Below are positions 2,566 through 19,952 of a stretch of 20,000 bases of DNA, in pieces (the first letter of the stretch is position 1; each line of letters starts with the position of its first letter). A program made the translations under genes and the position numbers. Under the pieces are notes generated by a model, which saw only the letters and a list, made by a program, of their open reading frames with translations, was not told the origin of the DNA and searched no databases. The DNA comes from Psammoneis japonica (taxonomy: Eukaryota). The stretch spans positions 673,727-693,726 of the forward strand of contig QPGO01000026.1 in the NCBI GenBank assembly GCA_008632985.1, read 5' to 3'.

Positions 2566-2960
2566 CCTGCTTCCGAGGAGCGACCAGTTGGGAGTGAGAG
2601 CGACGTGCGACCCACGACCCACCCACACTCTGGGGGACGTCTTCGGAAGTGAGACTGTCGAAGAAAGTTACGTAGAATTTGTACTAAAACAGTCTGTCAA
2701 TCAGTGCGATTGGGTATTTGGGACCTCTGGACAGATCCTACGTGTTTTCTTGCGCGTACAAAATGTACTGGAAAAACCCCCAAACGCACTGGCGATCAGA
2801 CCGCCATCGACGATCTCACTTCCAAAGACGCCCCCCAACTCCACACTACACATCAACGCAACGCTTCACAAGAAAAGGTTGCAGCGTGTGCTAAATTGAT
2901 TGTGTTTGTTGCCTTCTTATATTCTTGAAACCAATTGTATTTATACATATTATTCACAAT

Positions 2961-4967
2961 ATGTCATCGTTGGCTACAATCAATGTTGACTGGTCTTCCG
3001 ATACCGCCTTGATGACAACGTTGATTCCAAAGTCTTCGGCAACGGTTGCCGATTGGATTTTGGAAATCATAGAGCGAGGAGGTTTAGCAACGTGGTGGTA
3101 TTTTCCCCATTTACCACAAGGAGACAAAATTGTTGATTTTTGGTGCAATTTTCGACAGGGAATACGAATGAACATTATAATGGAACCACAACGACGTGAA
3201 CAACAACAGCGCGTGGCTCATTATCGTTATTTTGTTCGAGCCTATCACAAAGTGGGAAGCCACGAAACGTTTTGGGATCCCTTTTGTTGTATAGCCGATT
3301 TGTTACCACCGGGTCAACAATATCATGTTTCGTTGTGGTTGGAGCCTGTCGAGTATTGGGTGTATGATTATGAACGCAGAAACGACAATGATCCCATCAA
3401 TTGCGATGATCCAACACCGCCTCTTTCCACAACCATGACGTTGGCATATGAACCACCAAGAAGAGGAGCTGTAGAGGGGTGGGTGGTTCAAGACGCAGCA
3501 GCAGATAACAATGAAGACAACAGTGATGCATCTGCAGCAGCATCGTCGTCCTCGAATTCATCTTCAGGCTCCTCGACGAGTCACATGGACACAGAAGAGG
3601 AATTGAACAATGCCTATCACAAGGAGGCATCGCCACCAACCGAAGAAGAAGCAGGAAAAGACAGTATCCTGCAGGCGGCCAAAGTGGCTAGCTTGGCTTC
3701 AACTGCCAACAAGGAACAGGCGACTACTACAGCTGCTGCTGCAATTGCCTCGGAAAAGATAGACACTGCAACGTCTTCCGCTCTGGCCAGTCCTGATGAA
3801 AAGGCGAATGAGGCTACCGCAAAGGCAAATGGGCCCGAGACAGCAGCTAATGGCAGCGGAACAGAAGAGACGGAACCCACTGTGAAAGAGACAGAGGAAA
3901 CAAAAGACGACACCAACGAAGAAGCTAATGAGGAATCAAGTGTTGTGAATGGCGCGATAAAAGGGATGGGGACAAGTGTTGAAGATAAAGAGGAAAACGC
4001 AAAAGAAGCAAAGAACGATTCAACTGCTAACAAAGAGGACGGACCTAGCAACCATGAGGAATCAAAAGCTAAAACAGACATGGCCGACGAAAATGAAGAC
4101 GAGGATGATTCGAGCTCAACTACAAGTAGTAGTAGCAGTAGTAGCAGCAGCAGCTCGAGTTCGTCATCATCTTCCTCTTCGAGTTCAAGCGAAAGTTCTT
4201 CTTCGTCATCCAAGCCAGACGAAGAACATGCTCCAGTACCAGTCACGCAAGAAGATCCGCCAGAGGAAATAGAGCCTGATTCGCCAGAACAGAAAACAAA
4301 CGACGTGATCCCGGATTCACCAAACGACAAGAAGGAGCCTGGCAAAGACAAAGACAACGTGATCCCGGATTCACCAAGCGACAAGAAGGAGCGTGACAAA
4401 GGAAAAGGTGACATTGATCCAGACCAAGACAGCGTAGTGGATCGTGTACCCGACAATGACGAGCAAAAGGGTGTCGTTTCACCAGAGGCACAGAAAGAAG
4501 AGGGATCCAAGAAGGAGGAAGAGGATTTGTCGAGTACGAGCTCATCATCGTCTTCTTCTAGTAGCTCCGCCTCCTCGTCGTCATCATCATCTTCTTCTTC
4601 TACATCATCATCATCATCCGATTCTAGTAGCACTAAAGAAAAGCAAGGAGAAGAGACACAATCTAAAACTACCAAATCAATGGAGCCAGAGGCACAAGCC
4701 AAAGAGGAGCAAGAAAAAGGGAAACAAACTACAGCCACCAGCAAAAAGGAGCAAGAGGTACAGATTGCCAAGCAAGAAGAAAAACAAACCGAGAAAGTAA
4801 ACGAAGAGAACCATGATGCCTTGAAACCGGAGAATGGGACTTCCAATGACACGAGCTCGCAGCAAGAGACTCCTGCAGCGGCGAGTCCAACTGCCGGCGT
4901 GAGGCGTTCCTCTCGTCGCAGGAAACCATTGTTGGATCCAAATTTCAAGTTTGGAAAGAAAATGTAA
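2961..4967 (+). CDS. Acidic, Ser-rich, largely disordered protein with an aromatic N-terminal domain and a basic C-terminal RRSSRRRK motif
   Basis: 668-codon ORF from ATG 2961. Three poly-Ser tracts, Glu/Lys/Asp-rich linker, C-terminal NLS-like RRSSRRRKP. No signal peptide. Confidence 0.8.
   Translation: MSSLATINVDWSSDTALMTTLIPKSSATVADWILEIIERGGLATWWYFPHLPQGDKIVDFWCNFRQGIRMNIIMEPQRREQQQRVAHYRYFVRAYHKVGSHETFWDPFCCIADLLPPGQQYHVSLWLEPVEYWVYDYERRNDNDPINCDDPTPPLSTTMTLAYEPPRRGAVEGWVVQDAAADNNEDNSDASAAASSSSNSSSGSSTSHMDTEEELNNAYHKEASPPTEEEAGKDSILQAAKVASLASTANKEQATTTAAAAIASEKIDTATSSALASPDEKANEATAKANGPETAANGSGTEETEPTVKETEETKDDTNEEANEESSVVNGAIKGMGTSVEDKEENAKEAKNDSTANKEDGPSNHEESKAKTDMADENEDEDDSSSTTSSSSSSSSSSSSSSSSSSSSSSESSSSSSKPDEEHAPVPVTQEDPPEEIEPDSPEQKTNDVIPDSPNDKKEPGKDKDNVIPDSPSDKKERDKGKGDIDPDQDSVVDRVPDNDEQKGVVSPEAQKEEGSKKEEEDLSSTSSSSSSSSSSASSSSSSSSSSTSSSSSDSSSTKEKQGEETQSKTTKSMEPEAQAKEEQEKGKQTTATSKKEQEVQIAKQEEKQTEKVNEENHDALKPENGTSNDTSSQQETPAAASPTAGVRRSSRRRKPLLDPNFKFGKKM
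4303..4410 (+). repeat. In-frame 54-bp tandem duplication (VIPDSPxDKKE x2)
   Basis: acgtgatcccggattcaccaa.cgacaagaaggagc starts at both 4303 and 4357. Confidence 0.9.
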
Positions 4968-5087
4968 TTTATTTCATCAAAGAAGTTCTAGCTAGAGGAG
5001 GGATGACTTTCAATACGTTCTACTTTTATTTACACTTGTCACAATGAAGCGATTGGATTCTACAAGTACGCGACGGCAAAACTGAAC

Positions 5088-5110
5088 GGGGGGGGGGGGG
5101 GGGGGGNNNN
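5088..5110. other. G19 run ending in an assembly gap (nnnn 5107-5110)
   Basis: Seen directly. Contiguity across this point is not guaranteed. Confidence 0.95.
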
Positions 5111-5713
5111 ACGCAAAGTTTACCAAGGGTATTGGGAGTACCTTGCTGGAGTGTGAATGACTATCCATGCTAAATGCTCATTTCAGCTACAATGATGAAC
5201 AAGGATATCCTTATATTGGGATGCAGAAGAAGCACGTGAGAGGACTCAAAAAGCTAGCAGCAAAGATTGAAGGAGTCATGTGAATTGTTCAGAAGTTCGC
5301 CTCTTTGGGGGCAGCGACGACTTTTGCAAGCGTCCTTTGAATCCTGTATTGCCAGATTCACTACGTACATTTGCCCCGCGCGAAACTCATCTTTGAAAGA
5401 ACTACGGCGAGCTGAACCGGGACAAGTTCAGTTCCTTGCTAGAGTGCCTAAGGACAATATCGGGAACATGGAACGATGACATGAGCGTTTCATGTCTCGT
5501 TCGCTTGTTAGTTCAATAAGTGCCTTTGAAAACTCTCAACGCCAGCGCTGCTCACAGCCGTGATGGAATCCTGATTCTCGTCCTCGCTGCCGTCGTTTGA
5601 GGATACCGACAAGTTGGTGTTAGTGTCTTTTTGACTTTTCTAAACTAGGCACGAGGAGAAGTAAATAAGCTGCTTATAGAAGTAGTATATAGTGAACCAA
5701 GTATGTGCCCAAC

Positions 5714-8173
5714 TCACTTCAGTCGTCTCGTCCGATCATCCATGTCTCGATCTCGTTTCTGCCGGTCACTGTAGTCCAAGCCATGGAATCCACCCCCGAC
5801 TCGATCTCGGTTTTCCCAGTCAACGCCACTTAGAAATTCTTTTATACTTTCAATAACTTCGTGTAAAGTCATTTCAGTTACACCATACTTCCTTCCCAAA
5901 AATCCTTTCATGTTTGCTCTTGCCAGATCATCATTATACCTCTGCACAAATTCATCCTGAGACTGAGCTGTTTGTCCTTCATTTCTCAGTGCGCAAAAGC
6001 ACTCGTCGTGGCCGTCATAAATGTGGCGAAAATCAAACGTAACATCGCCAGCATCAGTTAAAACACGGAGCTTCCTGTCAGAAGCGTCATTGAAGAGACG
6101 GGCATTTTCCCCGCACCCCCTACACCTACCCTTGACTCTAAACCGAAGGCTCCTCTTCTTTTGCTGCTTTGTTACAATATTCAAATCTCTGTGTCTTAGC
6201 ATTGGCTGCTCTTCGTCTTGGACACTCACTTCCGTAATGTAGCGGAACTCTGGGTCGCAGTAGGACCTGCATGGACGTGATAGTGAAAGCGGTTAGTGTG
6301 AGATGTTTGAATGCGGTGTTTGACGAAAAATATTCCTGGACTTACGTTGCGGCAGAGTTGTATTCGTTCAAGAAACTGTCACCGAGATAGCCAAAGTCTT
6401 TCTCCAAGGGATCACCCGTGAAATCCAAGTCATAGTCACTTTCAAACACATCTTGTTGCCAATCGCAGTTAACCACCCCATATTCTATGACAGTGTTCAC
6501 CGATTTCAAATTCGATAAGCTTCCATGGGCCTCAGTCTCGAAGAGCGCTTCTTGGAAAGCATCTCTGAATTCTGCCTCCATGGGTGCGCGATTTTCGGTA
6601 AGGCCTCCAGCGCACTCGCAGGTTGTTGGCGTCTTGTCCGCCAACACAGAAAGGACCTTCTCCTCGTTTCTACGATTGCCGGCGTCAAAGAGATGTGTGT
6701 CTTCTGTGCAGCCAATACCTTCGCAACTTCCAGTGACTCTATACAGAAAGTTTCGTGAGGTGAGTTTGTGGCCTTCCATGTGTTTCAAGATGTGGTCCGT
6801 CTCTACCACCGTGACTCTCTCCACAACCCGTTTCGAATCCATGTCGCAAACATGCTCTTCTTGACTGGGGGCATTAAGAGCATTGTACGTGTCACGAAAT
6901 GCGCTTTCAAGGATTGGAAATATCTCTTCATTGCTCTCGTCGGGATCGTGCAGCGTGTGTTCCACAAGGGCGTACGTTTCAAAGGTTCCCGAACGTTTGC
7001 AGGACGAAAGACCTTTGACATGCCCCCCTACTGACTTTTTTGTGGTAGTCTGTGCCTTAAGACCTCCCTCCGACTTGTTTGTCGTAGCTCGTATCGGGAA
7101 TGGAGTTGGTTCAGCCGTTTCTCTTGTGGTTGGCTCGGGCGTCGGCTCCTGAGTTGAGGGTATCGTTGGCGGTGGTGTTGGCGAAGGCGTGGGATTCTGG
7201 GTGAGAGCACGTGCCGTGGCACCACCGCCTGTCTCACCGTTCTGGTCTATGCCTTCGGTTTCTAATTCCTTCGTCAGCGGGCTTCTTGATGGGGAAGAAT
7301 TAGAAGCTGCGACTTGCTTCTGAGGGTTTGGAGCTTTACACCGTCTCTTCACCATGAACTTCCCACCAACGACGTTCCCTTGACAAGAGATCTTCCTTTT
7401 GCGCCATCGTTATTCTTGAGTTTCATTTTCTTACCTGAATCATTGTCTTGAAAAACTAACGTTGAGTTGTACGCATTCCCACTAAACACGATTGAGTCAG
7501 TTGCGACGTTGCCAACAATATCAATGGCGTGGAACTTGTTTCCTTCGATGGCAATCCTCTTGGCGTTGGAGTTCATACTGATGAAAGCTTTCTTGGAGCC
7601 CGTCACAGTATTCTTTGATACGATCAATGACTTTCCTTTCTTCAACATGTTGTTGACTATCTTGAGAGTGTGAACAGAATTCTTATCAACTGTGATAGTG
7701 TCTGCTAGGACTCCTTGGATCTCGACACTGGAACTGGATCCGGAACTTTCGTAGACTTTAAGATTTCCGCCTATATGAACGTAGCATCCCTCTGCTGAAA
7801 TGGAAACCTGGCTCGTTCTTTTTGCCTTGATACCCGTCTTGAACATTGGACAAACATTTTCTTCAGATGAAACAACCAAACTGCTCCTACGTTTTAAAGT
7901 GATCTCTCCTTCAAAGGTGACTTGTCCAGTGATGATGAGTGTCGCTCCCCTATTCACTTGGACTTTATCATAAATCGTGACTGGAGACGATCCCTTGATC
8001 CCTCCGTAAATTGTGCATGTCGCACCATTTGGTACGTTGACCTCGTCGCGTTCAAGACCTCCATGTCCGTTTATCTCTCCAGGCGCCTTTGATGTGCCAC
8101 ACAAGAACTCACCCCTTGCAAATGGGGCACTCAACGCTAGCGTCCAAGAAACAAAGCAACGCATAGTCCTCAT
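5714..8173 (-). CDS. Secreted modular protein: signal peptide, beta-solenoid-like N-domain, Pro/Thr linker, two Cys-containing modules. Three listed ORFs probably form one gene.
   Basis: Signal-like MRCFVSWTLALSAPFARG and repeated (I/V)xGN/NN rungs. PTPSPTPPPT linker. Module YN..CD..R..V..YRVTGSCEG.GC...LF is repeated as YN..CDPEFR..FRVKGRCRGC...LF. Intron 6345-6267 joins two ORFs in frame. The junction near 7375-7435 needs a -1 shift or a short intron. Confidence 0.7.
6267..6345 (-). other. 79-bp spliceosomal intron
   Basis: GTAAGT donor, CTAAC branch point, TGCAG acceptor. Splicing gives NSAAT-SYCDPEFRYITEVSVQ in frame. Confidence 0.9.
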
Positions 8174-8601
8174 TTTGGATCTTTTGGACTTGTTCTCAAA
8201 CCAAACATGACGAGAAAAAATGGGATGGACGTCGTGGTGAAAACCATACCACCCGGGGCTTAATTAAAAATCGTTTGTAGCAGGACATTCTAAGATATTA
8301 GAATGTCTATGAACAGTGTCTCGTCACTGGGCATAATTTTACGATCATGTGCGGGTGCCGTGTGACGAGGAAAAGATGAAGGAGGGCTTATGAGGCAAGC
8401 ATTGAATGACCTCACGTATTGCCCGAATCAACATTAGTCGTAGATTGATTCATTCGACTGAATTTGTCTATGATCATCTCCGTGACTCATTTTCGTGGAA
8501 CAATTTGAGGGTCACCCACATGATTTGTTCTTGCAACATGACCAGCATTTCATTTTTTCATCCGCCGTGTGCTTCTCGACCCACTTGGTCCAGCACGCAC
8601 C

Positions 8602-9442
8602 TGTTGGAACATTGGGGTTAGAGGCAGTTTTCACAGGACAGACACAGACAAAGACACACTGAGCGACGATTGTGGCGGGCAATGTGGCAAGTCGATCTTG
8701 TCAGATGCAAACGAAAAGGCAGCCAAGGCTTGGAAGCAGCTGGCGCTCATTCATCAAGATGAGGTGGAAGCACTTTTTTTAAGATTGTTGGCACAATTGG
8801 TTTGCAAGCTCAGTTGAAACAGGAGTGGAAACACACGTCCTGTGGCAGGATCATCCCGGACGGAAGAAATCACCAAAAAAGAAGATGGACCCAGCAAGGA
8901 TGCCAATGACGCCTGGAACAAAAAAAAGGAACAAGCCATTGGTGGCGATGCCAGTGGAAGGTGCCAAGGAACACACTGGCAAGTCTTGAAAGACCTGCAT
9001 CAGCGGCTCACATTGGGGGTTGACACTCACCCCAATCCAGCTGAAAAGGCACCATGGGTGTTGGACACACCTGCTGCAGGACCAACAAGAAACCGGGTGG
9101 CACAAGTTTTGCATGGAGTGAGATGAAGCAGATTGAGTGCTGGCAATGCAACAAGTTTGTTGGGCATGTGAGAAGGAGGGTTGCCCTGACAATGATCGTT
9201 CACTGTCAGCAGAGTTGGATGATGTGGGCCATTGGAATTGGCAGAACAGCCAACATGTTGTTGGGTTGCATGGTTTCCAAGTGTCATCCACCCATGCTTG
9301 ATGGGCATGAGGTTGACCAGTTGACATGGCTTGTGTGAAGAAGTGTGTTGGAGCATCAAGGTCAGAGTCAGTTTTTGCAAGACAGACAGACAAAGTCACA
9401 GTGTGATGCACACTGGCGACAATTTTGGACAATGTGGCAAGT
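8602..9442 (+). repeat. Diverged direct repeat, 8602-8692 vs 9346-9442
   Basis: 34 of the first 43 columns are identical and 8 of the 9 mismatches are transitions. Both copies end caatgtggcaagt. Confidence 0.85.
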
Positions 9443-9513
9443 TTGTGTTTGCAACTTGGTTTGAGTTGCAGGTCTTGTTGTGTTCACTTTTTAGCTTCTG
9501 CACCTGGCCAACA
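8602..9513 (+). mobile_element. Degenerate LTR-retrotransposon remnant (partial LTR, gag zinc-knuckle relic, LTR)
   Basis: Two diverged copies start TGTTGGA (8602, 9346). The second ends CCAACA at 9513 (TG...CA, 168 bp). A frameshifted CCHC-like CWQCNKFVGHVRR..CPD lies at 9138-9190. No TSD found. Confidence 0.5.
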
Positions 9514-11470
9514 TGGCAACAGTGATTGACAACAATGGCAACGTGTTTTTGCAAGCCACGCAGCAGGCTCAGAGATCATGGTGAGACCAAATGCACACCA
9601 GCTGGCAAGTGGTGAAGCTCCAACAGCAACAGGAGCTCTTCACGGGGGGGGGGGCATGCAAAAGCACTTTGTCTGTCACTTTTCTTGCTTCTTTGCTGAA
9701 CAGCTGGGCTGGCTTCACTTTTTGTGCATGCTCAGCTGGGTGTTCAAAGAATGCTTCAAAGCAGCAGCACAGCAACATTGGTTTGGTGCTTCAACCTGCC
9801 CACATCTTTGCTGAGCAATGTGTGTGTCACACCACAGCAGTTGTGTTTCTTTAACTTTTCTCAATCACTTGTTGTTTGCAGGCTGCTAGAGAAAAAAGGT
9901 GAAAGCACACTGTGTGCAAGCAAGAGATGCCAGCACACCAGTGTTTGGAGGAACCAAGCCTTCAAATAGAAGCACAAAAAAGCTCAACAAAAAGATGTTG
10001 ATGTTGTGCCAGCAAGGACTTCTGGGCTTGTCATTGGTGGTGTTGGATGGCACCTGCTCTCTTGTGCTGCCTGCCTGTGCAATCTGGGTGGCAGCAGCAG
10101 CAGCCATTGGTGCACATGAGTGGGCAAGCAAGTTGATTGGCACCCCACCATGGCAACAAACGGCTGACTCACTGCTCTCTCTTGCCTCTTGCCATGGTGT
10201 GCAAGAAACCAGAGCTGCTCTGACAAAGCATGCAGAGTGCGGCAGCATGCCATGTCGACTGCATCATGCTGGTCCGGATCCAAACACTCAGAGAAGCGAG
10301 TCCTCATCAAGAAGATTGGTTGCTTGTCTGCGTGCCGATGAGGTCACCTCAACAGCGAATCAGCTGTCCAAGCTGCCGCATCATCACTCTGGACAACCTG
10401 GCACTGTTGGCTAAACATCTGTTGCACCGACCGAGGGAATCTCAGTGCAGTGTGCGCGCAAGTGCAGCAACACTTTCGAACAACATTTGGGCATGAAAAC
10501 AGAAGCAAACAATGTGTGGGGCAAGATGTGATGACAATGGCATTGTTGGACTGTGCTGTTGTTGCTTAAATTCAGTTCAGAAATCATGAATTCAAAGTGC
10601 GATGAAGACAAACTGACACCAAAGGACAACAAGATCGAGACTCTTCGACACCTGCATCGCCAACACGGGCAACAAAGAACAAAAATCAACGTGTGTTTTG
10701 CACGTCTCATTCATTGACACTCACTTCTTTCCTGATTCCTGAGAAACACAACACATGCAACATCAGTGTTGCTGTCTCTGACAGGCTGTCATGTGGCCAC
10801 ACACACTTGGAAACTGCCGAGTGACGAACGCAAACGGAGTCGAAGCACATTCTGTCATTGTGCTTTTGCAAGCATTTTTTGTTCATTCTCCCATCCACAA
10901 GAGCACGAAGCATTGAAATGAATCAATGTTGAACAGCGCCACAAAATGCGTTGCTTTCTAGAGTGCGCACGTGGCAAACACACCAACAAACCACCACGGT
11001 TCATCCACAACATTTGCGTCTGTAGAGCAAAATTTTTAGCACCAGCGTAGAAATGGTGCCAAGATCTTGTGCAGACTTGTGACATGGCAAGACCGCAACG
11101 GAAGATTGCACATTTTTTTCTCAACCCGAAACCTTCGCCATTGTGCTGGAAGTGTTTCGGCAGCCATCGCAAGTGCACCATGCACTGACAATCAGCTCAT
11201 TGCATCATTGATCTTCAAAGGAACATCCCACAATGCTTGTTTGCTTGAAATTGCATGGAAGTTGAAGAAACTCAGTTGCCAACAATCAGGAAGAAATGTT
11301 GCAGCATTCCGAGGGTGCCGACAAGCAGCAACACGGCGGGGTTTCGTGTCTGTTCATCTTGTTGAACCAACAGCTGGAACATTGTCTCTTTCGAACATTC
11401 AAGGTGAGTTAAATGTGAACATTGCAATTCAAAACAATCCCAAAATGTTCTCAGATTTTTTTCGGTACAA

Positions 11471-11527
11471 ATCTACGCAGCTTTGTCGTAGATGGCACAG
11501 AAACCCGTGGCAAGGTTCTGTGCCATC
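11471..11527. repeat. Two overlapping inverted repeats
   Basis: atctacg/cgtagat (11471-11477, 11487-11493) and gatggcacagaa/ttctgtgccatc (11491-11502, 11516-11527). Confidence 0.8.
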
Positions 11528-11822
11528 GAAAATGCTCAGGACCTCGCTGCGCGTTTCTGTGCATGCCGGTAATGAGCAGGGATATCGTCTGTAATTGACA
11601 AGAAATATTTTTAGTCATATGATTCGACGCTAATACCACCGCACGTAAGTTGAACCGTGGTGAAACGGGGTGCTGTACGCGCGAAATGTACGTGCTACCG
11701 TAATCCGCGCCTTGCTTGCCTTCATTGCCGCGATGTGTTGAATTTCAAGACATCGATCTCTAGCTAGAGTGATAGAGCGACAAGAGAGCTCCAACAACAG
11801 CAACAACAACAACCACACGACC

Positions 11823-13084
11823 ATGTCGGCTCCTTGGGCCCGAATAACTGATGATGCCTACAAGTCATGGCTTCTGGAGGCCATGACAGCTGAAGAGTAC
11901 AATGGACTTGGACCTGTTGAACGACGAACTTTACTGACCCAATTTCAGCAGCAGCAACAGCAGGCGCCGTCCCCGAAGCAATTCTCCGAAGAAACCGTTG
12001 CTGGTCTTGCACAGTTTGCAACGGATTATCAAACAAGAAAAAGGACAATTGTACTTTCTGGAGCAACTAGTTCAACGAAAAATGACCTGATGGATATGCT
12101 GAATATGCAAGAGAAAGGGGCTGGCTGGAGAGATAGAACTGCTGTTTCGCAGTCAGGGCAGCATGTCGATGGGTTTTTGTGGTTAAAAAGTAACGAAGAT
12201 TCTGACGAGAATCGTGAAGGGTATATGGCTCATCTCAATGCCTTCATACAAAAACCAGTGGAGTATGCATTAGCAGATGTGCAGCCAGATAGGGACCTGT
12301 TGACGGTACATTTCCTTCGATCAGAACCCGAAAGTCGACAAATACGTGGAACTACTGATGTTGTCATCGCAAAATCAGTTCACGTTAACAATGCGGCAAT
12401 TCGGAACAACATTGAAGCTCTGATTGAATTGAAGAAGCCCAGAACTTGCAAGAAAAAGATCACACCCCACAAACAATTGGTGAACACTTTGCGGCCTCTT
12501 ATCTTAATATCCATTGTCCGGTGGTTTCCGTTTTGACCGATTTGAACGACAGATGGACTTTCTTCTGGTTTGCAAGAGGAGAGGATTGTTTGGGTTCGGC
12601 TGCTCTCTACAAGATCTGTCTCAAGGGATCAAGCGCAGCGGCAGAGGCAAAACACATACTGAATAGCCTTTTCGTCAAAGACGTGCCCGAGGACAGACTT
12701 CCGGCCACCTTTGCTAATCGAATTTCACTTCAGGCTGCCTTGGAGTGTGTCGCAACGAGCAAGAAGACGCGAATTGAAAGTAGTGGCCATGATGAGGGAG
12801 CTGCGAAGCCTGCTGGTGGGTCGGATGAGTCTCCAACACCTAAAAGAAGCCAACATGCCTCTTCACAGAGGGGTGGCAAATCAGATCGAAACAATCAAAG
12901 CATCGTTCGCGGGAATAGCAGTGCCCCAATGAACATGACTGAAATGTTGAGCCTCTTTGCGCCTCCTGCCGATAGAGATGTAGCCAATGAGCTTGACCTG
13001 TTAGATATGGTGGACGAAAATGAACAGTATGAAATTATCCGTTCATTTGCTTTGAAGCACATCGTGCCTTACATGAAGGGATAA
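11823..13084 (+). pseudogene. Crinkler (CRN)-like protein with a restriction-endonuclease-fold domain, interrupted by a -1 frameshift near 12440 (pseudogene or assembly indel)
   Basis: IRGTTDVVIAK...ALIELKK (PD-(D/E)XK-like) is in one frame. QTIGEHFAAS...PVVSVLTDLNDRWTFFWF follows in the -1 frame. One extra base in aagcccagaac joins them. ATG at 11823 with a poly-Gln N-terminal header. Confidence 0.7.
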
Positions 13085-13448
13085 CTGTGAAATCTCTTCC
13101 GGAGCTGTTCTTTGGCCTTTGGGAGAAGCTGAATCGTATCTTTCATCACGGCTACGAATATTAGTATGCATAACGCTGCAACTTTGCTTGGTCAATCCAA
13201 AAGGAGAATGGATCAGAGGAGCGAGAAACGAAGCGGAAGACATGGCGTAACAAAAGTTCGATATGCACGATAATTTAGTTGCTTCTACATGTATGTGGTC
13301 TCTTAATTGCCGAAAGCGCTTATAAAGAAGGATGTGCGTTCTCTCTAGCTAGCTGCTCGAAGTTTGCTATCGTACCGGTAGTTGACCAACAAAAAGGCGC
13401 ACAATTATTGGGGTGCCGAATGTAGTCGTCGTGTCTCTCCGTAGCTAG

Positions 13449-14255
13449 CTAGTCTATGTCTTGTGAGCTAGGATCCACAATGTTAAGTTTGCCATTTCGA
13501 GGTTCAACAGCATGCATGGTGACACCCAGTTGATCGGCAAACTTTTGCGGTACATTGCGTTCTTGGGACTGGTTGTCAAGTTGATGACAACAACTCCTGG
13601 TCTCCCACCTCACCCGCACCGGCCAGTGCGATGAGCGTAGTGCGAAGCATCTGTTGGCGAATCAAAGTTGATCACATGTGTCAAAAGGGGTGAGTCGAGA
13701 CCTCGTGCTGTCAGCTCTTTAGCAACAATGATGCCAACTTAGCCTTCTTGTAACTGAAGCAATCTTCTCACTCCCTCGTCCACCGTGAAGAGGGGCGGCA
13801 ACAATGCCCATGCCCTCTCTAGCTTTTCCACAATGACATCTACCTTTCAAGAGTTTTTGGCAAAAACTGGTGTCTGTTGTGGCAATGGATCAGCATGCAG
13901 TGTTCTTCGCAAAGTCTCAAGAGCATGTCAATGATGCGGAATGTGCACGACACCGTGAATTGCTGTTCAACTGACTCGAGCAGCTTGCCCTTTTCCAGAC
14001 CCTTCCTTTCCACCATCCAATGATGAAGTCACAAGGACATTGTCCTTGTCCACCATTGCAGCTGTGCAATCTTCTTGCAAACATGCTTCTAGCCAGCCAG
14101 CTTCGGAGAGCCCAGCATGTCTGATGCAGTCACAGAGCAAAGGACGGACTGCAACAGATCCCCACGTCATTTCTTCAGGCACTGGGCAATGACATTGGCA
14201 GGATTACGGTGAGGCTTGCACTTCAGCAGAGCATCAAACTCATCCAAAAGAACAA
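13449..14255 (-). pseudogene. 5'-truncated DEAD-box RNA helicase pseudogene (not recognisable in the ORF track)
   Basis: Manual minus-strand translation: motif II LLDEFDALL (DEFD 14244-14233), motif III LCSVT (from SAT), APLHGG, motif V ELTARGLD (ARGLD 13708-13694), HVINFDSP, motif [17 protein letters not shown], stop TAG 13451-13449. Several TGA stops (probably from CGA) and frameshifts. Confidence 0.9.
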
Positions 14256-16190
14256 GATCACAACTCCGAAAACTCACAAAGAATTGCAACGCTTTGTCGG
14301 CATGATCAACTGCTGTCGAGTCATGTGGCCTCAACAATCTCACGTTGTTGCTCCTTTGGCCAGACTCACCTCAACACCGGCAAAGTGGGATTGGACCAAA
14401 ACGGAAGAAAAAGCCTTCAAAAATGTGAAGCACATCATCTCCAAAGACATGTCACTGTCACACCCAAATTTTGACAAACCCTTTGAGATGTGTGCTGATG
14501 CGAGCAATTCTCAATTGGGAGTGGTTGTCATGCAGAACAGTTGGCCTGTTGCTTTCCACAGCCGCAAGCTGAATGGAGCACAGATGCGTTGTGCTGAAAT
14601 GGAAGAAAAAGAACTGTTGTTCACAGTGGAGATGTTAAAAGAGTTCCGGAACGTGCTGTTTGGCCAACAGATGAATGTGCACATGGATCATAAAAATCTC
14701 ACACACAAAAACTTCACAATGGACAGAGTCATGCACTGGCATCTGACAATGGAAGAATGCAGTCCCAAACCAATTTACCTCAAGGGCAAGGCCAACATTG
14801 TTGCAAATGCAATCAGCAGACTCACCATGAAAAAAGTGGAACCTGTGGAAAACCTCAGCAATGAAGAACCAGCTGAAATGTTGCCACCAAAATCCAGTGA
14901 CAATGTCTTTCTGTTGACGTGCAAAGTTCTTGACACTGAACAAAAGCAGGACAAAGACATTCTCTCCAGATTGTCGGGTGCAACACATCACACAAAGATT
15001 CTTCATGGAGGTGAGCGAGGCTGGTTGCTCACATGTCACAAGGACAAAATCATCACTCCAAAGACATTGCAAAAGGCAGTGACGACAGATTGGTGTCACA
15101 CTCACCTTCTTCACCCTGGCACAAACAGAACAGAAGAAACACCATCTCACAAAACACTTGTGGTGGTCTGCCCTGCATGATGACATGCAAAAATGCGTGT
15201 GTCAAAATGTGAGATGTGCCAAAAATTCAAAAAGAAACAGAAGACATTTGGACATTTGCCCCCCCCCCAAGTGTGCAGAAACCAGTGCCATGGGAATGAC
15301 TGTGTGTGGATCTCATTGGACCATGCAAAGTGCATTGCAAGGGAAAGAACAAAGAACCCCCAGCCCTGAAATGTTTGACAATGATTGATCCAGCAACCAG
15401 ATGGTTTGAAGTTGTGGAAATTCCAAACAAGGAATCCACAACTGCAGTTGGACTGTTGGAACAAACATGGTTGAGAGCAGACATCCTTGGCCGTTGTCAA
15501 TTGCACGTGACTGTGGAAGTGAGCTCATCAGACACTGATTTAAAGACATGGTTGAAGAGGGCTGTGGAGCTGCAAAGTCAAGCCTGCAACCACACAAAAT
15601 CCACAGTCGAGCGCAACTGTAGAATGTGCACATCAAGTGCTGGGCAATGTGCTGCATGCATTTGACCCACAACATTCACCGTTGGATGCTGCTGATGATC
15701 TGTTTGCTGGTGTGCCATCCGCAGCAGCCTTTGCTGTGCTTTCTGCATGTCACACCACTGTGCAAACTGCACCAGGACAATCAGTCTTCAATGGAGAGAC
15801 ATGATTTTTAATGTCCAACATGTTGCTGATTAGAAGTTTGTCCAAAAGCAAAAACAGCAAATCACAAATGGAGACAATGCCAAAGAAAACGCTCGATCTG
15901 TGCACTCCATGCATGCACCACAGAGCAGGTGAGAAGACACCACTCGAGAAACACTTCCAAAAATTAGAACAGCTGCATGCAGGGCCACATGCTGTGATGA
16001 CAACGGCACACGCCAATGGCACAGCAAAGATCAAACACAGTGATGTCATTGACGGCTGTCAACATTCATTGTGTTGTGTGCCGTTTTTGACGAATGATGT
16101 CACAATGTGCAATTGGGGAGGCGAACGCAACATGCATTGTCATGTGCATTTTGTGTGTGTGTGTGTGCATTCATTAACAGTTTGGTGACC
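14255..16190 (+). mobile_element. pol: Degenerate 5'-truncated Ty3/Gypsy retrotransposon: RT thumb/connection, RNase H, integrase, GPY/F region, PPT, short LTR remnant
   Basis: Domain order RT-RH-INT. Motifs GMINCCR, CADAS, AFHSRKL, DHKNL, VANAISRL, HLLHPG, CVDLIGP, MIDPATRWFE, DCGSE, NPQS..VECAHQ, GPH. Frameshifts after about 15140. PPT-like ggggaggcgaa at 16115-16125. Confidence 0.93.
16152..16167. repeat. (TG)8 microsatellite
   Basis: Seen directly, inside the presumed LTR remnant. Confidence 0.9.
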
Positions 16191-16475
16191 CTCAAAACAA
16201 CAGCCAAGTGGTTCATGACATGCGCCGAGCGAATTCGGGTTGCAAAACTTTTTTTGCGTGTGCACGCACAGATAGATGCTCGATTTTACTACGCGACGCC
16301 CGCGCGCGCGTGGTCTTACTCCGAGCAACATTCAATCGTGGGAATCATTCCAACGCTCTCTTCCACTTCACTCGCAGGCAGTCCACGTAGAATTCGTACC
16401 ACATTCTACACAACAGCTGCCAGTCACTGAGAGAACGCATTCTCGCAAAAAAACAACAAAAACGCGACAAGCACC

Positions 16476-17959
16476 ATGGGAAACGAAAGTTCCAAGGCAC
16501 GAAAACAACGACAGGACAAAAAGACTCTTGTCCAAGTCGTCAAGTCTTCCTATGCTACTGCCAGTAAGGCTGTTCAATTCCATGATACACCCGCTACAAC
16601 CGCCACAACGGTTGCTGCTGCTTCGCCGTCTTCCGGAAAACATAATTTACTCGTCACGGGTCGATTATCCCATGTCCGCGATACATATCACATGTCTCCT
16701 CAAGAGATTGGACACGGTCATTATGGGATTGTACGTAAATGTCGTCATCGTGAAACGGGTGAATGGTGTGCAATCAAATCGATTCAAAAATCTAAACTCA
16801 GCAATACCAAAGTACTCGAGAGAGAAGTGCATGTCCTGCAAGCACTGCATCATACGCATGTGTTGGAATTGAAACAAATCTTTGAAGATGAACATTATTT
16901 GCATTTTGTCACCGAACTATGCAAGGGAGGTGAACTCTTTGATGAAATTTTGAAACGAGAGCATTTTTCCGAAGTGGACGCAGCGCAACTCATGCGGGAT
17001 GTGCTGTCGGCGATTCGGTATTGTCACGATGAGAAACAGATTTGTCATCGGGATTTAAAGCCCGAGAATTTTTTGTTTTTGAATCCAGATGGAACACACA
17101 TTAAAATTATCGACTTTGGTTTGTCGAGATTTGATTTGGATGGAGAAATCATGAAAACCAAGGTCGGAACGCCGTATTATGTCGCACCGGAAGTGTTGCG
17201 ACGACGATACACCAAGGCGTGTGACATGTGGAGCTTGGGAGTCATTACGGTATGTGTGTGTAGAAAACAGAGCTATTGTTGTTGTTGTTTTATAATTTTG
17301 TATTGCACATCCTCACCATCTTTTCTTTTCTAATTCACTTAACTACAACACAGTACATTCTACTCTGTGGCTACCCACCCTTTTACGGGGATTCCGATGC
17401 CGAAATTTTCAAATCCGTTTCGGCGGGGTATTATTGCTTTCCACAACCCGAATGGAATGACATTTCCGATGAAGCCAAGGACTTTGTCAATAATTTGTTG
17501 CAAATGGATCCCTCCAAACGCATGACGGCAGCCCAAGCGTTGGAACATGAATGGATTACGAAGTATAACAATGAGACAAAACCAAAACCAGAATCATCAT
17601 CACAGCGAGCACAACCACAGCAAAAGCGGAATAGTGTCAAGAGTGAAAAGTATCAACGTGATCGTGCCTTGCAAAAACTCAAAAAGGCAACCTATGCCTA
17701 TTTACAAAAAAACAAGCAACATGCCGATAGCAATGCTTCGACGAGTAGTGACGAAAACAATTCGGAAGATGAAAAACGCATCAAGAGTGCCTTTGATCAT
17801 TTTGTCACGTCGGATTCCAAGGGATTGTCGGTGGATAATGTCAAGGATATTTTAAGAGATTCGGTACAAGCCAAGGAATTGATGGATTTGGTAGATACCA
17901 ATCATGATGGAAGAATATCCTTTGACGAATTCTATCAAGCCATTGTTCAAAAGGAATAA
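16476..17959 (+). CDS. CDPK: Calcium-dependent protein kinase-like, 2 exons (16476-17249, 17354-17959), 459 aa
   Basis: MGNESS myristoylation motif; GHGHYG, AIK, HRDLKPEN, DFG, APE. A 104-bp GTATGT...ACAG intron joins SLGVIT-YILLCGYPPF. Junction LQKLKK and EF-hand DTNHDGRISFDEF. Confidence 0.95.
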
Positions 17960-18290: not shown

Positions 18291-19952
18291 CTAATTGTTG
18301 TTTACCGAGAAAGCATACGCGGAACCAGAATGCTCGCCATTGACATCAGTCCGATGAGCACCAACTCCAATGACGCTTCCGTTGGCTGACAAGGAAACGG
18401 AATATCCAAAATTATCATCTTCAGCCTCACCATTCAAAGAATCTCCGACTTGATTCCATTTAGACATGGTGATGTCGTATTGAAAGATTCGAACTTGACC
18501 AACATCGTTCAGTCCATTGACGTCGTGCTGCCAACCACCGACAGCCACAACATTTCCATTTCCACTCAATGATACTGAGACACCAAATCCATCATTTGGC
18601 TGTTGCGTTAACAGAGTTTGGCCACGTTGATTCCATTTAGACGCCGAGCGGTCGTACGAATAAACCAAGACTCTCTCGTCACTTCCAGGTGCGCCCACGG
18701 CCATGGTCAAGCCGCTATCGTCAAGAGAAACAGAACGTCCAAATTGGCCATTAATAACCTGTCCATTGATTGGACTACCCAATGGATGCCATTCTGATGA
18801 TGTAGAATTGTATTCATATACAGACACTTTACCAGCATTGGCTTCAAATGCCCCAACTCCAACAATGGTTCCCAGGGCATTTATGGACACGGAACGTCCG
18901 AAATGGTCTTGACCAAATAGTGCCTGTCCGAGTTGCCTCCAGGAGGATGCGGCACGGTCGTATTGAAACAATTGAACTGATCCATAATTCTCGCCGTTTC
19001 CCAAGCTACTCGAATAAGCTCCCACTGCAAGAATGTCGCCCGCGTCCGACAGCGACACGGAAGAACCAAATCGATCATCAGCGTCTATTCCAAAAAAGGC
19101 ACCACCGAGTTGGACCCAACGATCTGATGCAGAGTCATATTCAAACACTCGAACGTGGCCAACATTTTCTCCGCCACTGTCATTCCATGATGGAGCTCCA
19201 ACCGCAAGAATTGTGCCATCTCCATTTAACGAAACAGACCTTCCAAAATCGTCACCGTCGGCTTGTCCAACCAGTTCTTGACCAATTTGTATCCACTGTT
19301 GGTCTACGTCATTCCGTACGAATTGATTCCTCGACTTTTTTGGGCTGTGTCGATTGACAACAACATAGCCGGGATCAGAAGAAGATTGCTCTGCTCCGAT
19401 AGCCATGACACTACCATGACGAGACAAGGACACCGAAGTGCCAAAATAATCTTTCGCAGCTTTGCCGTGCAATACTTGTCCAGCGGGCTTCCACGTCCCA
19501 TTTGAAATGGCAGATGCAGAAGCTTGGTCAACTGGGGAGATGGTGTTGGCTCTTGGTTGGAAATCGGAGTCATCGTTGATGTCGGGTTCGGTATGCGACC
19601 GTTCCATATGGGACCGTTTTCCCATGGCTTCACTCCTACAACAACACCAACAATCGTAGCAATGATTGTAGTCGCAACTCCTCCAACGACGATGCAACTT
19701 TTGCGACGTCTTCTTATCCCTGCCATTGTTCGAATCAGTTTGATCAACATGGGGTTCTGTATCATCAGAAACCCTAATGACAGGTTCCATAGCCGGGGCT
19801 GGGTGAAGAAGAATGTTCTCTTCTGGAAGTGAGCCGCTTCTTCGTCCGCCACTTGCTCTGGACAGAAGGCGTCTTCATCCGCCTCTGCTCTATACAGAAG
19901 GTGCCGATGCTTCATTGTCATCGCTCTGCTCGCCACCTTTATGCGTTTCCAT
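18291..19952 (-). CDS. FG-GAP (integrin-alpha-like) 7-bladed beta-propeller protein, probably type II membrane-anchored; 5' region disrupted
   Basis: Seven FGxSVS(L/I)xxxGxxxxxG(A/G) repeats in the 18291-19790 ORF. The TM helix CIVVGGVATTIIATIVGVVVGV plus a PT stalk lie in a different frame (about 19700-19530). The in-frame ATG at 19952 is followed by stops at 19892 and 19877. Confidence 0.8.

Follow-up and report, generated by a model that had tools for sequence, protein, structure and literature searches.

Giant-virus and virophage DNA integrated in the genome of the chlorarachniophyte Bigelowiella natans undergoes TpA-restricted hypermutation, as described in the accessible part of a report by Mettrop et al. 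(bioRxiv 10.64898/2026.01.13.699255). In mutation-accumulation lines of this species, the mutations of a virophage and of an integrated giant virus, the latter single copy and transcriptionally silent, fall at TpA alone, and the agent proposed is an ADAT2-like deaminase (10.64898/2026.01.13.699255). Within the portions of text reached by a full-text literature search, this TpA signature was described only for B. natans (10.64898/2026.01.13.699255), and no diatom paper was found. Two further systems are relevant, again as far as the available excerpts describe them: repeat-induced point mutation (RIP) of Neurospora and other ascomycetes (PMC7296669), and CG methylation of diatom transposons, which is DNMT5a-dependent in Phaeodactylum tricornutum (PMC9998398). 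The locus described here resembles RIP in its local burst of transitions at specific dinucleotides, by which transposons are killed and stop codons made, and which spills into unique neighbouring sequence. Indeed, RIP itself leaks into adjacent single-copy DNA. Animal ADAR and APOBEC enzymes, by comparison, have RNA or single-stranded cDNA as their substrates, and their strand-biased marks are confined to sequence that has passed through the retroelement cycle.

The window, by which we mean the whole 20,000-nucleotide stretch of DNA that was analyzed, looks from its sequence like part of a pennate-diatom nuclear genome. It contains, on the minus strand at 13449..14262, a truncated DEAD-box-type helicase pseudogene running from motif II to the stop codon (260 alignable codons, recognized by homology and Pfam), hereafter the relic, which adjoins a 5′-truncated, multi-copy Ty3/Gypsy pol fragment on the plus strand at 14263..16035. 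The relic and the transposon share with the B. natans system, as far as the accessible part of that preprint goes, the change of TpA to TpG and CpA, a long-term depletion of TpA and an enrichment of CpA plus TpG. In both cases the effect is limited to a domain of silent foreign DNA with normally mutating genes next to it, repetition is not needed (the B. natans target being single copy), and the hypermutable zone exceeds the annotated insert. Unlike B. natans, a rhizarian, the organism here is a diatom and thus a stramenopile, the targets are retrotransposons, and a host-derived gene remnant is hit. Moreover, the B. natans changes are described as almost exclusively A/T to G/C, whereas change of CpG to TpG or CpA is strong here, accounting for 16 of 60 private changes in the relic and 20 of 75 single-base changes in the Gypsy fragment, and the B. 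natans mutations were observed as they arose, whereas ours are a fossil footprint only. The comparison with RIP is one of opposites in chemistry and direction, since RIP converts CpA to TpA, while here TpA is destroyed and depleted and CpA/TpG is enriched; furthermore, no duplicate of the relic is seen at 80% likeness or above among the contigs of X1, the one public run found to contain the locus. The CpG to TpG or CpA changes in and beside the transposon, including five Arg CGA to TGA stops in the relic, are like the CpG decay of methylated transposons, but deamination of 5-methylcytosine covers only the CpG half of the relic's damage. ADAR and APOBEC share the deamination chemistry, and ADAR also prefers U or T before the edited A, but the marks reported here are strand-symmetric and extend into single-copy flank. 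Taken together, we favor with moderate confidence a DNA-level, strand-symmetric, domain-targeted TpA mutator, accompanied by CpG decay, that extends from a silenced transposon into the adjoining DNA.

The initial annotation had placed a minus-strand helicase remnant with motifs II, III, V and VI at this position, and ortholog matches, Pfam and tblastn all agree with it, except that the upper end lies at about 14262 rather than 14255. When four full-length orthologs were searched by tblastn against the whole window, the sole match was at 13452-14271. The minus-strand translation matched 46 diatom helicase proteins at E<=1e-3 among 690 candidates (best E=1.5e-50), the top 32 matches being diatom proteins with both PF00270 and PF00271, and the read-through frame matched Pfam Helicase_C (PF00271) at E=6.9e-8. 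The closest relatives are from Fistulifera, Epithemia, Mayamaea and a Bacillariaceae MAG, and identity to pennate diatom orthologs is 48-64% despite the damage. The core motifs follow one another in order, namely motif II (LLDEFD, with DEFD in the orthologs too), motif III (SVT, where the orthologs have SAT), motif V (ARGLD) and motif VI (HRTGRCG*, the asterisk being a stop), and together with the Helicase_C homology they assign the sequence to the DEAD-box (DExD) branch of superfamily 2. What remains is the C-terminal third of a DEAD/Helicase_C-type helicase of about 750 residues, the N-terminal two thirds being missing. It is not a functional gene, as it retains residues from motif II onward only, without motifs Q, I, Ia and Ib, and its reading frame is interrupted by six in-frame stops and shifted at least four times. 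Five of the stops are TGA (codons starting 14169, 13969, 13930, 13849 and 13612), each facing an ortholog Arg; the sixth, a TAA at the codon starting 13741, faces Tyr. Frameshifts or indels occur near 14094-14082, 13813, 13754 and 13564, and the terminal stop codon is a TAG at 13451-13449. To judge from these matches, the relic derives from a nuclear cellular gene that is conserved in every pennate diatom sampled, and therefore a functional copy probably exists. In the protein database nothing was closer than 83% identity over the least-damaged 113 relic codons, and a same-species parent was not found there. Similarly, when the flanking-gene ORFs of the window were compared for synteny with the flanks of 20 ortholog loci, nothing matched, these flanks being short (1.5 kb).

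The relic lies at the margin of a zone that is nearly devoid of TpA. In 500-bp bins, the observed/expected ratio (O/E) of TA is 0.84 at 13001-13500, 0.22 at 13501-14000, 0.06 at 14001-14500 and 0-0.15 from there to 16000, and the mean of the TG and CA ratios rises to 1.6-2.0 over the depleted bins (CpA/TpG O/E range 1.6-2.2). The TpA counts given in the initial annotation, 2 in 13861-14255 (at 14090 and 14205) and 7 in 13501-13860, are exact on recount, and a further 4 lie in 13449-13500. The whole relic has 12 TA in 811 bp and 24 CG, compared with 23-50 TA (O/E 0.54-0.85) and 42-68 CG in the homologous stretch of 13 functional orthologs; the TA depletion is thus far beyond chance. It is not uniform. 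The heavily damaged proximal relic (13802..14262, minus strand) has 4 TA (0.9 per 100 bp, O/E 0.13) and 9 CG (O/E 0.34), with 11 TA-type and 12 CG-type changes, and the lightly damaged distal relic (13452..13801, minus strand) has 8 TA (2.3 per 100 bp, O/E 0.37) and 15 CG, with one TA-type and four CG-type changes, as against 2.5-6.6 TA per 100 bp in the orthologs. The non-coding 3′ flank (13100..13448) has normal dinucleotide content and serves as a local neutral control: 13100-13451 holds 25 TA in 352 bp (7.1 per 100 bp, O/E 0.95) and 22 CG (O/E 1.25), and neutral DNA at this place is therefore not losing TA. On the Gypsy side (14263-16140) there are only 8 TA in 1878 bp (0.4 per 100 bp, O/E 0.06), and three neighbouring coding regions have TA ratios of 0.45-0.51, so that the TA ratio delimits a domain, from 0.06 in the Gypsy through 0.13 and 0.37 in the relic to 0.95 in the 3′ flank. 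At its other end the TA-poor island tails off over 16036..16270, where the only TA is at 16175; a unique X1 contig starts at 16111, and the last ~130 bp are single-copy flank.

A second TA-depleted island, also partly multi-copy, occupies 8470..11400, with 12 TA in 2931 bp (O/E 0.06) and TG/CA ratios of 1.7-1.9. It is multi-copy at 8600-9500 and 11000-11600, its stretch at about 9800-10100 is covered by one X1 contig only, and this single-copy stretch is equally depleted in TA. A six-frame Pfam scan of 8301-11902 found no families, and a HMMER search with the ORF at 9899-10414 found no matches among 1.84 billion representatives. Deep CpG loss in this island is limited to 9100-10200. Across the window, TA loss fills both islands, but only their cores (9100-10200 and 14400-16000) show the deepest CpG loss, and these different spatial extents suggest two processes rather than one.

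To read the mutation spectrum at the protein level, the relic was aligned to a profile of 32 ortholog proteins, and a difference was taken as informative if the column was conserved (at least 75%) or if the relic residue was seen in no ortholog. Consensus residues are retained at 180 of 260 codons and at 139 of the 170 columns conserved at 75% or more. All but one of the 44 informative differences are explainable by one base change. Among these 43 are five TA>TG, five TA>CA and one TA>TG that is ambiguous with a transversion; seven CG>CA, two CG>TG and seven CG-type changes ambiguous with a transversion, including the five Arg to TGA; and nine other transitions, one mixed case (other transition or transversion) and six transversions. 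Unambiguous AT to GC transitions fall at TpA in 10 of 14 cases, where the three control coding regions of the window predict a fraction of 0.12-0.14 (p=1.5e-6); the other four, all T>C, lie off TpA, and the match is therefore not exclusive. Likewise, 9 of 14 unambiguous GC to AT transitions are at CpG, against an expected fraction of 0.22 (p=8e-4).

The peptides that first drew attention to this damage (LLKCKPH, LEACLQEDC, RRTLHADP and QQTPVF) are present in the translation, and at the corresponding positions the orthologs read LLEYKPH, (Y/F)LR.G(Y/F), RRILHT(E/D)P and QQIL(I/V)F. The proposal that restoring TA recovers helicase residues is thus supported, except for the second Cys of LEACLQEDC, which faces Phe in most loci. 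Some inferred ancestors are firm, for example Tyr encoded by TAY in 13 of 13 loci at 14220, or the CGN codons that most loci have opposite the five TGA stops. Others are less so, as the rarer codons ATA, CTA or GTA are needed at 13903, 13873, 13870 and 13963; indeed, the Val to Ala change at 13963 needs a GTA codon, which none of the ortholog loci has there.

The same question was addressed at the DNA level with 13 of 20 ortholog loci from a metagenome scan. We dropped L008, L014, L016 and L017, whose translations duplicate L007, L013 and L015, as well as two partial loci (L018 and L019) and one of 30% identity (L020). A private change was defined as a base differing from a majority of at least 75% of the other sequences, with each sequence taken in turn (leave-one-out). 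The relic has 60 private changes, comprising 12 TA-type, 16 CG-type, 19 other transitions and 13 transversions, with ancestral states taken from other species, synonymous sites mostly uninformative and few TA sites. Change of TpA to TpG or CpA makes up 12 of 60 in the relic compared with 18 of 429 pooled in the 13 functional orthologs (about fivefold; Fisher p=6e-5), and change of CpG to TpG or CpA makes up 16 of 60 compared with 19 of 429 (about sixfold; Fisher p=2.6e-7). The A:T to G:C changes at TpA yield both products, and the split between strands is even, with six TA>TG and six TA>CA, whose order along the relic (five runs among the 12 sites, by a rough hand count) is not unlike chance. 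The mutated sites are therefore enriched for TpA in both tests, a feature whose lack, along with that of a gradient, had been named beforehand as grounds for abandoning the idea.

The transposon itself bears damage of the same kind, and stronger. When the fragment was aligned to 21 pol homologs, only one of 14 conserved Tyr codons was kept; six are now Cys, five His and two Phe, so that 11 of 14 have become Cys or His. Conserved Arg is kept at 9 of 22 positions. One base change is needed for 75 of the 91 changed conserved columns, and these 75 comprise 26 TA-type (plus two ambiguous), 20 CG-type, 12 other transitions (plus one ambiguous) and 14 transversions. Again the TA-type changes fall on both strands, 14 giving TG and 12 giving CA.

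The relic and the Gypsy fragment are fused head-to-head on opposite strands. The latter begins 'TTPKTHKELQRFVGMINCCR...' at the end of the reverse transcriptase and continues with RNase H and then integrase; RNase H was identified by Pfam, and the integrase and the C-terminus of the reverse transcriptase by the alignment to pol homologs. Since both pieces are 5′-truncated and meet head-to-head, the junction at 14263-14272 is the scar of a rearrangement or deletion and not a simple insertion site. A repeat search found no LTR pair, inverted repeat or other long repeat in the window apart from a tandem pair of 54 nt at 4300-4407. In run X1, 11618-14318 is covered by just one contig, of depth 59, which differs from the window at five letters, and summed depth climbs from about 14275 to reach 3200-6250 over 14301-15500. 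Contig differences in X1 number 513 transitions and 154 transversions. The relic is thus single copy in run X1 and lies outside the repeated Gypsy unit, and this, combined with its cellular origin, indicates that it is no part of the retroelement. Therefore, as the initial annotation had claimed, a cellular gene copy carries the TpA damage, being single copy in X1, common to pennate diatoms as a gene, and about five times as rich in TA-type changes as its orthologs.

These copy-number data bear on a mechanism that senses duplicates, as RIP does in fungi, whereby the relic was mutated as a second copy and the mutated zone marks the extent of homology rather than nearness to the transposon. The probable existence of a functional copy, given the conservation of the gene in every sampled pennate diatom, speaks for such a mechanism, as does the near coincidence of the TA-poor zone's limit with the end of the coding sequence. 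However, no second contig at least 80% alike over 13101-14000 was seen in X1, and none in X2 or X4, which is no proof of absence, and no protein comes closer to the least-damaged part of the relic than the 83% given above. The TA damage also stops about 350 bp before the homology does, the single-copy stretch of the island at 8470-11400 is just as depleted, and the B. natans target, in the part of the preprint available, is single copy (10.64898/2026.01.13.699255). Finally, if pairs were sensed, the functional copy would have been damaged along with the relic. We therefore regard duplicate sensing as unlikely, although it is the most credible of the alternatives to a domain-targeted mutator.

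The initial annotation further proposed that the TpA damage fades with distance from the Gypsy, and the counts bear this out. At the DNA level, 11 of the 12 TA-type sites lie at or above 13802, the remaining one being at 13511. Counting hit sites together with those where TA is still present, 11 of 15 TA targets were hit within 460 bp of the junction (13802-14262; 4 still present) compared with one of nine in the last 350 bp (13452-13801; 8 still present; p=0.009). The CpG targets, for which a comparison of the fraction mutated with distance had also been suggested, follow suit, falling from 12 of 21 proximally to 4 of 19 distally (p=0.027). The fall is nevertheless shaped more like a tract edge near 13800 than like a smooth gradient, because the two halves of the proximal tract are alike, with 4 of 6 and 7 of 9 TA calls at the protein level. 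By composition, a weaker effect reaches further out: the distal relic's 2.3 TA per 100 bp is under all 13 orthologs (2.5-5.8), and its 18.3 TG+CA per 100 bp is over all of them. A first rough length scale of spill-over can be given, with heavy damage reaching about 0.5 kb and traces of it about 0.8 kb. Such a reach of 460-800 bp is unusually far, as unique DNA at the three remaining island edges is TA-poor for no more than about 130 bp.

The shape of this fall raises the question of whether the relic is a patchwork, for example one in which gene conversion by a functional copy replaced the distal 350 bp once the damage was done, making the fading an artefact. All change classes are about two to three times denser proximally (46 in 228 testable positions, compared with 14 in 195), transversions included (9 compared with 4), and part of the fall could therefore reflect a general difference between the relic halves such as old gene conversion distally. 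Two frameshifts and a six-codon deletion are, moreover, located exactly at the transition (13813-13754). Yet the distal half still has two TGA stops, one of them at 13612, and one TAA, as well as the frameshift at 13564, its TA density is below that of all 13 orthologs, and no donor copy is seen among the X1 contigs. We consider a patchwork origin of the fading quite unlikely.

Ordinary neutral decay of an old pseudogene under a genome-wide, context-dependent mutation process, without local targeting, must also be weighed. Methylated pseudogenes do lose CpG, transitions dominate most mutation spectra, and the 60 private changes of the relic are hardly exceptional in number, since some functional orthologs have 52-57 each. 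Against this, the adjoining non-coding flank keeps its TA and CpG (O/E 0.95 and 1.25), the share of TA-type changes is five times that of the orthologs, and the depletion is contiguous with the transposon and graded, which together make untargeted decay improbable. Editing of a chimeric Gypsy-helicase transcript by ADAR-like (A-to-I) or APOBEC-like (C-to-U) enzymes, or reverse-transcriptase error, with the product copied back into DNA, is very improbable: the ADAR-type preference for a 5′ U fits TpA, to go by the accessible part of the B. natans preprint (10.64898/2026.01.13.699255), and the relic abuts a retroelement, but the relic is single copy with the repeat starting only at the junction, the two pieces have opposite orientations and are both 5′-truncated, a poor fit to template switching, no poly(A) tract follows the 3′ flank of the relic, the changes are evenly split between strands, and the damage fades inside the relic instead of covering it evenly. 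The even TG/CA split, the single copy, the opposite orientation and the lack of poly(A) thus uphold the earlier view that RNA or cDNA editing and reverse-transcriptase error are not the whole cause.

Under the reading that we prefer, a domain-targeted TpA mutator with superimposed CpG decay, the C-terminal third of a helicase gene would have been cut off, joined head-to-head to a truncated Gypsy, and then have decayed, the proximal 460 bp of the relic sharing one mutated tract with the transposon. The mutator would change A:T to G:C specifically at TpA, leaving TpG on one strand and CpA on the other. It may act on a domain of silenced chromatin with the transposon at its centre and reach several hundred bases outward, whether the DNA is repeated or not. 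Superimposed on this would be C to T change at CpG, as expected from 5-methylcytosine deamination in methylated transposon regions, which may reach further along the relic. The cause is probably driven by an enzyme targeted to the domain, with the CpG part stemming from methylation, and a candidate is an adenine deaminase of the ADAT2/TadA kind, as proposed for Bigelowiella.

A single-copy, host-derived sequence bearing a transposon's damage is of particular use, as it separates editing within the RNA/cDNA cycle from mutation in place on the chromosome. The relic favors the latter, and suggests that targeting is by domain (chromatin or position) and not by sequence repetition. It also illustrates the cost of such a defence, namely the collateral loss of neighbouring gene sequence. 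We tentatively raise a broader possibility, to which we give somewhat less than even chances: that a diatom DNA mutator targeted to chromatin domains, probably a TpA adenine deaminase, marks silenced transposons and spreads over hundreds of bases without needing repetition, and that together with the Bigelowiella system it represents an old, SAR-wide genome defence whose editing runs opposite to fungal RIP. If the phenomenon is general, junctions between transposons and unique DNA would provide a simple genome-wide assay of mutator reach and timing in diatoms.

Differences between the window and public runs give some indication of timing. Three of the five differences of the X1 contig lie in the relic. 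At 13729 and 14065, the window reads TpG and X1 retains CpG together with the ortholog residue; this is CpG decay after the window and X1 versions split, so that the CpG part of the damage was recently active. At 13951 the direction is opposite, the window keeping the ortholog Val and X1 having TpA. Both polarised relic polymorphisms (13729 and 14065) are accordingly CpG-type and none is TA-type. Elsewhere, to the left of the island at 8470-11400, the sole X1 contig over 8034-8165 differs from the window at five places: the window has TA and X1 has TG at 8034, 8139 and 8165 (all on the same strand), 8136 is CG in the window and CA in X1, and 8150 is another A>G. The edge of the mutated tract there may differ between the assembly and X1. 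To the right of the Gypsy, the single-copy flank at 16140-16270 has one TA in about 130 bp, and 16214 is CA in the window and TA in X1; there may be a short spill-over on this side as well.

Several minor features of the window were also recorded. A predicted calcium-dependent protein kinase gene with a kinase domain and EF hands lies on the plus strand at 16476-17959, split over two overlapping ORFs (16476-17333 and 17276-17959), which suggests a short intron or a frameshift, and a predicted FG-GAP repeat protein gene lies on the minus strand at 18291-19790. Right where the TA-poor island gives way to the kinase gene, 13 CpG are packed into about 90 bp (16223-16309). The 54-nt tandem pair at 4300-4407 is 89% alike and lies inside a long ORF (2925-4967), and a run of four N at 5107-5110 marks an assembly gap. 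Run X2, from the same sample as X1, covers gene-like stretches only, one of its contigs (1546 nt) lying over 11740-13284 and another, of high depth, over the kinase gene (16457-17000), and does not cover 13401-16400. It skips 88, 359 and 472 bases between 12435 and 12975. X2 may be a transcript-like data set. Finally, a marine sediment metagenome (run X3) has 151-nt contigs over 13179-13329 and 13467-13616 with one or two differences each, plus scattered reads over 13021-15438, and therefore the same or a very close organism is present in that sediment at low depth.
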